Source: Vicinamibacteria bacterium (GTDB lineage Bacteria > Acidobacteriota > Vicinamibacteria > Vicinamibacterales > UBA8438). From it: DNA of 53,194 nt. The notes beneath the pieces were generated by a model. The model saw nothing but the letters and a program-made list of their open reading frames with translations. It had not been told where the DNA came from and did not search any database. The number at the start of each line of letters is the position of its first letter. The first letter of the stretch is position 1. The translations under genes and the position numbers were made by a program. Where the stretch lies: NCBI GenBank assembly GCA_963577695.1, contig CAUZAY010000002.1, positions 1 to 53,194 on the forward strand, read 5' to 3'. Below, in pieces: positions 43,375 through 44,559 of this stretch.

Positions 43375-44559
43375 ATGCCACTCTCCCCCGGCCCACGCCT
43401 CGGCGTCTACGAGGTCTCCGCCAAGAGCGGCGAAGGCGGCATGGGCGAGTTCTATCAGGCCAGGGACACGAAGCTCGACCGGGACGCCGCCGGTGCCCCG
43501 GTTATTGGAGCGGCCGAGTTCCAGCATCCTGGAGAGATCTTGCTCGAAGAGTTCCTGGTCCCCATGGGGCTCAGTCAGAACCGTATCGCCAGGGCGATGG
43601 GCGTACCTCCGCGTCGAATCAACGAGATCGTGCACGCGAAGCGTTCGATCACCGCCGACACGGCGCTGCGTCTGGCACGCTACTTCGGCACATCAGAACA
43701 GTTCTGGATGGGGCTCCAGGCCGACCACGATCTCGAGGAGGCGCGCCGCCGCTTCGTCACTGTCCTCCGCCTGTCACCCGACGGCCGGCAGCTCGTGACC
43801 CAAATTGTCTCCGAGGTCGGCGGCGGCTCAGAGGTCTGGGTGTACGACCTGGAGCGCGACAATTTCCGGGCCATTTCACAGGAAGCGGACTGGAACGAGC
43901 ACCCGATCTGGTCGGCCGATGGCCGCTCTGTCGTCTGGACCACCGACACGCTCGGTGCCGGCGATCTCCTGATTCGCCCGGCGGACGCCAGCGCCCCGGC
44001 GCGACCGCTGTTCTTCGATGAGCCTTACAAAGTCGCGAGCGACGCCCACCCGTCCGGCAAATATGTCGTGTCGACACCGAGCGACGAACAGGACCTCTGG
44101 GTCTATACTGAGGACGACTCTGAACAGCCCGAGCACTTCCTGGCGGCCCCCGGGATGCAGTGGGACGGGTCGTTCTCGCCAGACGGCCGGCACATCGTGT
44201 ACGACTCGCAGGAATTCGGTGCCACGGAGGTCTACGTGCGTCCCTATCCCCGGCGCGAAGACGGCAGCGACTGGTTCCAGCAGATCAGCCGTGGCGGCGG
44301 AGAAAGCCACCCCGTCTGGGTGGCCGACGACCGCATCGTCTACCGTCAAGGCACACGCGCCATGGAAGTGCGGGTCACCGACAACGGCTCGGAGCTCTCC
44401 TTTTCCAACCCGGTCCAGCTCTTCGACGGCCTGGACGCGGCCTGGGACATCGCACCCGACGGCACATACTTCGTGTCGCTCGAGCTGATCGAGCCGCCGC
44501 GGCTAATGGTGGTGTTGGATTGGTTTGAGGAACTCGGGCGCCTCGTCCAGACGAACTGA
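43375..44559 (+). CDS. Chimeric ORF: kinase N-terminus (37 aa) + complete HigA antitoxin HTH + TolB-like beta-propeller tail
   Basis: 394 codons with no stop. aa 1-37 are [37 protein letters not shown]. aa ~44-126 are [76 protein letters not shown]. aa ~131-394 are PD40/TolB-like repeats ending [20 protein letters not shown]. The kinase catalytic domain is absent. Confidence 0.6.
   Translation: [394 protein letters not shown]

Follow-up and report, generated by a model that had tools for sequence, protein, structure and literature searches.

The stretch analysed here (the window) comprises 53,194 nucleotides (nt) of contig CAUZAY010000002.1 from a Vicinamibacteria bacterium of the Acidobacteriota (GenBank assembly GCA_963577695.1). 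At 43375..44559, on the forward strand, it carries an open reading frame (ORF) that runs uninterrupted from ATG to TGA over 394 codons. The encoded protein of 394 amino acids (aa), hereafter the chimera, begins like a Ser/Thr kinase, continues into a HigA antitoxin domain and ends in a TolB-like propeller. With a probability of roughly 0.6, we take it to be the scar of a very recent rearrangement in a decaying member of a kinase gene family of a marine acidobacterium and not an established new regulator. From 5′ to 3′, the ORF is made up as follows.

43375..43486, forward strand: second-copy kinase 5′ end, with start codon and glycine-rich loop GEGGMG, reaching ...DTKLDRD (codons 1-37 plus 1 nt)
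43487..43524, forward strand: filler of 38 nt, which together with base 43486 makes codons 38-50
43525..43752, forward strand: higA codons 8-83, equal to chimera residues 51-126, a five-helix XRE/helix-turn-helix (HTH) domain without its own start or last 13 codons
43741..43752, forward strand: GCG CGC CGC CGC (A-R-R-R), the microhomology at junction 2, between HigA and propeller, as seen in the higA/propeller DNA alignment
43753..44559, forward strand: complete second six-bladed TolB-like propeller with C-terminal helix, residues 127-394, syntenic with a related locus, L009 (Ga0066376_10002790)

The first-pass annotation of this DNA had described a kinase N-terminus running in frame into a whole HigA module and from there into a propeller tail, and the 394 stop-free codons with both junctions in frame are present in the sequence as it said. 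In profile searches, the NCBIfam HigA model TIGR02607 scores 107.5 bits (cut-off 47.7) over chimera residues 50-125, covering profile positions 5-80 of 81, and Pfam reports HTH_3 at residues 58-110 (39 bits, threshold 23) and PD40 (40 bits). The middle segment thus passes the HigA cut-off and the tail scores as PD40/TolB; the HigA domain stands, but it is not whole, as the first 7 and last 13 codons of the 96-aa form are missing. TolB propeller models match residues 132-288, and the TolB family model TIGR02800 reaches 65 bits against a cut-off of 343, so the propeller is not TolB itself. Residues 1-37 share 85% identity with the N-terminus of the full-length kinase at the syntenic position in L009, where VALK comes next, in agreement with the proposed kinase start; kinase models give a weak match at residues 8-39, with Pkinase below threshold. 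The end of the tail matches the C-terminus of the kinase family, again as proposed. In the phmmer search, the propeller hits lie in the last ~270 residues of proteins of ~880-900 aa, and these same proteins match the kinase start as well. The catalytic domain and the transmembrane (TM) segment had been reported as lost, and both are missing relative to L009: no VAxK lysine, HRD or DFG is present in the chimera, only codons 1-37 are left of the kinase, and the TM segment of L009 and of the related proteins P0004-P0006 (PLPATL.ALGLV..TGLAVW) is without a counterpart. Neither a TM segment nor a signal peptide occurs anywhere in the chimera, which keeps the second six-bladed propeller only, not the tandem double propeller (about 544 aa, 12 blades). 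By architecture, and by architecture only, a DNA-binding and an input domain joined in a single polypeptide without a TM segment make a one-component arrangement.

The chimera is flanked by the following features.

42310..42455, forward strand: remnant of the original resident kinase 5′ region, which keeps the sequence upstream of the gene (GCCGACATAATCCA...) and codons ~13-24 but has lost the start and first codons by deletion
42508..42705, forward strand: vapB, type II antitoxin (Pfam VapB_antitoxin, 55 bits)
42705..43070, forward strand: vapC, type II toxin (Pfam PIN, 39.5 bits)
43067..43309, forward strand: HigA′, the remains of another HigA-family gene, distinct from the one in the chimera and cut short at its N-terminus (69.4 bits with TIGR02607, covering just profile positions 23-80 of 81)
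44573..45940, forward strand: PQQ_2/BamB-like beta-propeller gene (Pfam PQQ_2, 125 bits), with its own GGAG and a signal-like N-terminus

L009 is syntenic with the window at 89-92% nt identity and has the same gene order: DUF1611, MR_MLE, then PQQ_2, a second kinase-propeller paralog, HpcH and PCMT. Between MR_MLE and PQQ_2 it holds one gene of ~857 codons for a kinase, a TM helix and a long double-propeller ectodomain, itself split by a frameshift into two overlapping ORFs. Both the ancestral state and the precise boundaries of the foreign segments follow from this synteny. Compared with L009, the window has ~1.06 kb of additional DNA (42310-43373), and 1640 nt (L009 3319-4958; kinase codon 38 to about 585) are swapped for 250 nt. 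Kinase homology stops exactly at 43486 in every comparison and tail homology sets in from 43737-43742, the tail itself (43753..44559) being about 80% identical in nt and 72% in aa to those of L009 and of two further related loci, L007 and L008. The remnant at 42310-42455 aligns with L009 3108-3278, from just upstream into the syntenic full-length kinase, and its 36-nt scrap at 42420-42455 is 92-97% identical to L009 kinase 5′ ends. The kinase 5′ end in the chimera (43374-43486) is closer to the second paralog of L009 (8148-8238, 92.3% nt identity) than to the syntenic gene (3206-3318, 87.6%). The kinase start of the chimera is a second copy, and not the resident 5′ end, which survives at 42310-42455.

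Related loci show the same gene family in various states of disrepair. L007 and L008 carry dense arrays of kinase-propeller paralogs, many of them cut by transposases of the IS3 (rve) or IS110 insertion-sequence families or by frameshifts, a graveyard of the family. In L009, the second paralog (8010-9473) has an in-frame internal deletion by which ~95 residues of the kinase N-lobe are joined to the middle of a propeller (...ALVLELI|IFARDNALWAVPFD...), and in-frame deletion derivatives thus appear to recur in the family. The second paralog of the window (46074-47428) is a pseudogene without a kinase part, with a stop near 46659 and a frameshift near 46931-46955, so that the nonsense codon and the frameshift previously claimed for this neighbour are both present; population variants of it have an additional 1-nt deletion (46416, in L163) and a nonsense single-nucleotide polymorphism (SNP; 47033). 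In the literature on the kinase-TolB family in Acidobacteria, we found nothing specific.

The vapB-vapC pair (42508..43070) belongs to a toxin-antitoxin (TA) island that is inserted in the kinase gene and absent from L009. Window positions 42465-43086 are 91.8% nt identical to positions 1-633 of L168, a locus in which vapBC precedes a scrap from the 3′ end of higB and then a complete higA of 96 aa. Homology to L168 stops at 43086, resumes sharply at 43525 and runs to 43751; over 43525..43752 (L168 906-1132), identity is 95.6% in nt, with 10 synonymous and no nonsynonymous differences. When the HigA segment alone was used as a query, two free-standing 96-aa HigA proteins were found (P0248 and P0249, one of them encoded on L168) whose residues 8-83 are identical in aa to chimera residues 51-126. 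The arrangement in L168 indicates that the ancestral island was vapB-vapC-(decayed higB)-higA. Where the higB scrap and the first seven higA codons should lie, the window has 438 nt of other DNA, made up of the HigA′ fragment (43067-43309), a 65-nt spacer, the kinase 5′ end (43374-43486) and the filler (43487-43524). The HigA′ ORF has a GTG start, overlaps the vapC stop codon and is not found at this position in L168; a Q57P polymorphism in it occurs in 4 of 10 sequences of the population described below. As had been stated, the HigA module has neither a start codon of its own nor a higB: its homology begins at codon 8, and no HigB match better than E=0.4 was found in the 53-kb window.

Two other accounts of this arrangement were considered. 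Mutation of the higA start codon, for which an ATT stands where relatives have ATG, was dropped because L168 homology begins at codon 8 and the bases in question are not derived from higA. A single tandem duplication with a single deletion, starting from a higA-kinase pair like that of the related locus L010, was rejected, given that HigA′ is of another subfamily and that the kinase 5′ end survives at 42310-42455. L010 itself (5058-7305) has vapBC, a higB scrap and an intact higA that lies 12 nt upstream of a full kinase gene in the same frame; the 5′ ends of kinase-propeller genes seem to collect TA cassettes.

The open frame has to be judged against the composition of the DNA. At a GC content of 65.6%, stops occur at ~0.024 per random codon, and 394 random codons would be stop-free with p=6e-5. 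All three pieces of the chimera are read in their ancestral coding frames, however, so the real coincidences are the frame of junction 1, the stop-free filler and the frame of junction 2. Junction 1 is in frame because base 43486 and the filler amount to 39 nt, which has one chance in 3, and the 13 filler codons are stop-free with a probability of 0.73. At junction 2, the string at 43741-43752 is common to the 3′ part of higA and to the linker preceding the second propeller, in the same codon phase (higA ...EEARRR|LGRR... versus kinase linker ...DTRRR|), as seen when the DNA of L010 higA was aligned with the propeller genes of L007, L008 and L009. Microhomology-mediated joining explains this junction, and with ~12 nt of in-phase microhomology its frame is a by-product of the joining and not of selection. 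Long spurious ORFs are frequent in the window, so an open frame alone means little here; antisense ORFs of 326 aa (44375-45355, reverse strand) and 273 aa (42291-43112, reverse strand), both overlying real genes, illustrate how easily long frames arise at 66% GC.

The kinase-to-HigA junction had been placed at ~43486-43510. Its kinase end at 43486 is correct, but the two parts are not joined directly, with the 38 nt of filler in between and higA starting only at 43525. The source of the filler was searched for with blastn-short in the window and all fetched loci, where only chance 12-14-mers matched, and 43487-43524 shows no homology to kinase genes, higA or the higA upstream regions of L168, L167 and L010. 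A resemblance of the filler to a kinase activation-loop peptide was dropped, as there is no similarity at the DNA level.

Eleven metagenome contigs that were assembled independently (ENA, JGI and Logan) carry the chimeric ORF unbroken, at an identity of 98% or more, and it is therefore no artefact of assembly. Exactly this protein is encoded by five contigs (ENA; JGI 3300031801 and 3300060026; Logan), its 90% cluster has eight members, six of which are full-length 394-aa variants, and every contig with an identical downstream PQQ_2 protein also has the chimera. These 11 contigs are 99.26-100% nt identical to the window and together with it represent 12 sequences of one population. Beyond this population, no second HigA-propeller protein exists in 5.8 billion clustered proteins or in an exhaustive phmmer scan of 1.84 billion representative proteins, and the fusion is absent from the syntenic L009. 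Scans of genomes and metagenome contigs for more chimeras yielded only free-standing higBA loci (mostly of Gammaproteobacteria), L009 and L010. The first-pass annotation had known of no described HigA-propeller fusion, and this now holds for the 1.84 billion representatives outside the one population. The search for the same architecture elsewhere, which it had proposed, gave no orthologs beyond members at ≥99.3% nt identity (the 99.26-100% range above). In an ENA protein of 260 aa (P0017), a kinase N-lobe extends to about residue 115 and is followed by a complete HigA; it is an independent fusion in another organism.

Across the 12 sequences, the chimera has 11 SNPs, 8 nonsynonymous and 3 synonymous, for a ratio of nonsynonymous to synonymous polymorphism (pN/pS) of 0.84. 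The kinase leader contributes 2 nonsynonymous and 0 synonymous changes, the HigA part 2 (I85V and G113E) and 0, and the propeller tail 4 and 3 (pN/pS 0.41). Eleven flanking genes, when pooled, have 13 nonsynonymous and 35 synonymous changes, and the two sets differ (8:3 versus 13:35, Fisher p=0.011). Polymorphism in the chimera fits neutrality (p=0.73) and rejects an omega (the divergence ratio dN/dS) of 0.13 (p=0.004), and some of the SNPs alter conserved motifs (SPDG to SPEG, R328H). On these counts the chimera appears to evolve neutrally. As a test of selection the outcome is divided: the polymorphism of the population looks neutral, and frame disruptions, the other sign of decay that had been suggested, occur in none of the 12 sequences.

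Divergence limits the age of the event. If the HigA segment has been neutral since the fusion, its 10 synonymous and 0 nonsynonymous differences from L168 make the event younger than about 0.018 substitutions per site, a limit that agrees with population members differing by up to 0.7%. The divergence of the propeller tail was dropped as evidence on the time after the fusion: its omega of 0.38-0.42 against L009, L007 and L008 is the same in every family pair, including pairs without the window and broken copies, and its synonymous divergence (dS) of 0.45 is above that of the neighbouring genes (0.09-0.27).

These observations point to the following course. The ancestor was, by comparison with L009, which still has it, a gene of ~857 codons for a kinase, a TM helix and two tandem six-bladed propellers between MR_MLE and PQQ_2. 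A TA island of the form vapB-vapC-(decayed higB)-higA, as in L168, took the place of kinase codons ~25-585. Its right-hand join, within the 12-nt codon-phased microhomology, brought codon 83 of higA into one frame with the strand that opens the second propeller. In a further rearrangement, the higB scrap and higA codons 1-7 gave way to the other HigA fragment, the second kinase 5′ end and the 38-nt filler. The product, read from the borrowed kinase start, may consist of a disordered 50-residue leader, the HigA HTH domain and a propeller that is now cytoplasmic. Its frame would still be open because the event is very recent (<~2% divergence), because of the mechanics of the junctions and perhaps also because it lies in a transcribed stretch directly upstream, by 13 nt, of the constrained PQQ_2 gene. 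The first-pass annotation had left the choice between a very young scar and a selected new protein; the restriction to one population and the neutral-looking SNPs favour the young scar, and nothing found gives positive support to the selected protein. Of the marks of a pseudogene, the chimera shows rearrangement relative to the same-locus orthologue of L009, with the TA island seen in L168, and no frame-disrupting mutations.

The predicted structure bears on what the product could do. An AlphaFold2 model based on a 93-sequence alignment has a mean confidence score (pLDDT) of 79, with residues 1-48 disordered (pLDDT <50), five confident helices at residues 52-116 in the HigA part, a low-confidence link at residues 117-124 (pLDDT <50) and 24 strands forming six four-stranded blades at residues 126-380 (pLDDT about 90), followed by a C-terminal helix. 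In Foldseek searches, the propeller matches TolB (2hqs, E=3e-12). For the parent ectodomain (P0002, 544 aa), modelled with a pLDDT of 90, the best matches are tandem double-propeller proteins such as LRP6 E3E4, Pwp2 and tricorn; the two halves of P0002 show only weak, repeat-level similarity when compared with each other by BLASTP, and the double propeller is deduced from the model and Foldseek. Junction 2 maps near residue 272, the midpoint of this ectodomain, which means that one propeller is kept whole; in the parent protein, it lies after the TM helix and is extracytoplasmic. The closest solved homologue of the HigA part is Pseudomonas aeruginosa HigA (PaHigA; E=1e-18), the dimer interface of which is formed by helix alpha4 and an extended alpha5 (PMC6987408). 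Both domains are thus predicted to fold, but in the question of whether the HTH dimer interface is compatible with the propeller, which had been raised earlier, the model suggests that alpha5 would be shortened by the chimera junction.

Several observations weigh against a mere scar. None of the 12 sequences has a stop, frameshift or indel in the ORF, although only ~0.4 stop-creating SNPs would be expected; for the same reason, the contrast that had been drawn between an open chimera and a broken neighbouring paralog is factually right but loses weight. The polymorphism counts are small (11 SNPs), and the obviously dead second paralog gives a pN/pS of 0.35, which shows how noisy such values are. 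The HigA segment differs from L168 at 0 nonsynonymous versus 10 synonymous sites, and purifying selection on orphan higA in relatives with a broken higB (below) means that HigA activity may matter to the cells. Finally, the break falls exactly at a domain boundary, where the complete propeller (pLDDT about 90) and all five HigA helices survive.

Retained HigA activity alone is a credible rival, which we consider unlikely on balance yet the strongest of the alternatives. In this case, the HigA moiety would still be needed as an orphan antitoxin or XRE repressor, acting on a HigB encoded elsewhere or on other genes, with leader and propeller as passengers, and selection would keep only the start codon and the HigA part open. 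In 132 of 152 related higA loci, an ORF of 60 codons or more ends beside the start of higA, and almost every one of these encodes a canonical HigB. Three different lesions have disabled higB in the acidobacterial relatives, a nonsense codon (L167 57-641) and two 5′ deletions (L168 762-1175 and L010 5800-6270), and yet free-standing higA is conserved, with codon differences of 11 synonymous to 1 nonsynonymous and 42 synonymous to 10 nonsynonymous. The orphan higA of this clade seems to be maintained by purifying selection after higB decay, in agreement with a report on marine and hadal metagenome-assembled genomes (MAGs) in which the HigA type is the most frequent among orphan antitoxins and regulator roles are proposed for such orphans (PMC12654330). 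Conservation after a three-way decay of higB points to a toxin-independent role. The identity of residues 51-126 to P0248/P0249, with differences in DNA that are all synonymous, speaks in the same direction, and since the free-standing island copy was converted into the chimera, the fusion may be the sole copy. Within the population, however, I85V and G113E are both nonsynonymous and stand against no synonymous change in the HigA segment. The first 7 and last 13 residues are lost, alpha5 is cut at the junction where the model drops to a pLDDT <50, no higB lies within 53 kb, and the higBA promoter and operator region has been replaced in the window and thereby lost.

It is doubtful that the ORF encodes a newborn cytoplasmic one-component regulator, in which the HigA HTH would be controlled by a TolB-like propeller that senses a ligand or protein, a reading that the first-pass annotation had offered. 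Its two domains are complete and confidently modelled with a short linker between them, the ORF is open in 12 of 12 sequences and the architecture is unique. Yet the ratios of polymorphism (0.41 in the tail at 4:3, 0.84 overall) and the changes in conserved propeller motifs argue otherwise, as does the extracytoplasmic position of the propeller in the parent. No orthologues exist outside the one population, junction 2 is accounted for by microhomology, and a tail omega of about 0.4 that equals all family pairs, broken copies included, gives no signal of new constraint. We give correspondingly low odds to a gene caught at birth, in which the fusion would already serve as a repressor that responds to a ligand or protein, or as an antitoxin anchored by its propeller; if true, it would be the first HigA-propeller one-component regulator.

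Slightly less probable still is that the frame has been kept open for the sake of the gene downstream, with continuous translation avoiding a Rho-type premature termination before PQQ_2, so that in-frame rearrangements survived. PQQ_2 begins 13 nt after the chimera and at an equal distance after the L009 kinase, which suggests a conserved kinase-PQQ_2 operon, and it is probably co-transcribed with the chimera. It is strongly constrained (omega 0.13, pN/pS 0.12). A scan between 42250 and 46100 found no terminator-like or promoter-like (sigma-70-like) site, although such a scan does not cover Acidobacteriota promoter types or Rho polarity, and the second paralog of L009 is likewise an in-frame deletion. 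The argument is purely inferential, and the L009 kinase is apparently frameshifted upstream of the same PQQ_2 gene, which has apparently not been lost. An assembly or binning chimera of reads from different loci, to which multi-copy kinase 5′ ends and propellers could indeed mislead assemblers, is highly improbable, as 11 contigs that differ in sample, project and assembler (ENA megahit, JGI, Logan) span both junctions identically and share SNP variants, which also speaks against the worry voiced earlier about unsupported junctions.

Compared with known systems, chimera residues 51-126 are a bona fide HigA HTH like that of the HigA antitoxins (TIGR02607; PaHigA 6JPI/7CSV, Coxiella burnetii VapI 3TRB), but unlike them lack their own start, complete termini, higB and higBA promoter/operator and sit between a leader and a propeller. 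The Hanks-type membrane Ser/Thr kinases that end in tandem TolB-like/PD40 propellers, proteins of ~880-900 aa from a family expanded in Acidobacteriota, share with the chimera its start (MPLSPG..GEGGMG..DTKLDRD), its last 268 residues with the ...LDWFEEL.RLV end and the syntenic position of the L009 gene; the chimera differs in having no catalytic domain from VAxK onward, no TM helix and no first propeller, and in a start that comes from a different copy than its tail. Remnants of microhomology-mediated or illegitimate recombination in decaying paralog arrays resemble it in the sharp breakpoints, the 12-nt microhomology, the filler, the broken neighbouring copies, the limitation to one population and the near-neutral polymorphism. 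For such a remnant, the chimera is unusually tidy, with both junctions in frame, a break at a domain boundary and a product that could fold. Orphan type II antitoxins acting as stand-alone regulators (PMC12654330) are free-standing genes of ~96 aa, whereas the HigA of the chimera, although its lineage is orphan in three relatives, is fused and truncated at both ends.

As a scar, which is the likely case, the chimera would be a well-documented example of TA cassettes recombining with expanded sensor-kinase paralogs in marine Acidobacteriota, one that combines ancestral states, breakpoints, a phased microhomology and population data. At 66% GC, as the chimera also shows, an ORF that spans several domains without a stop is weak evidence of function, which calls for caution when novel architectures are annotated in MAGs. 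Were the fusion functional, it would be one of the rare instances in which domain shuffling is observed to yield a regulator de novo. The selection on orphan higA after higB decay and the recurrent in-frame deletion derivatives of the kinase family may be of wider interest.

Elsewhere in the window, the FO-synthase gene has its closest named relatives, at 94-96% identity, in MAGs labelled ‘Acidobacteria bacterium’. A hypothetical gene of 181 aa at 36465-37010 has many polymorphisms for its length compared with its neighbours (10 synonymous and 1 nonsynonymous, in 3-5 sequences).

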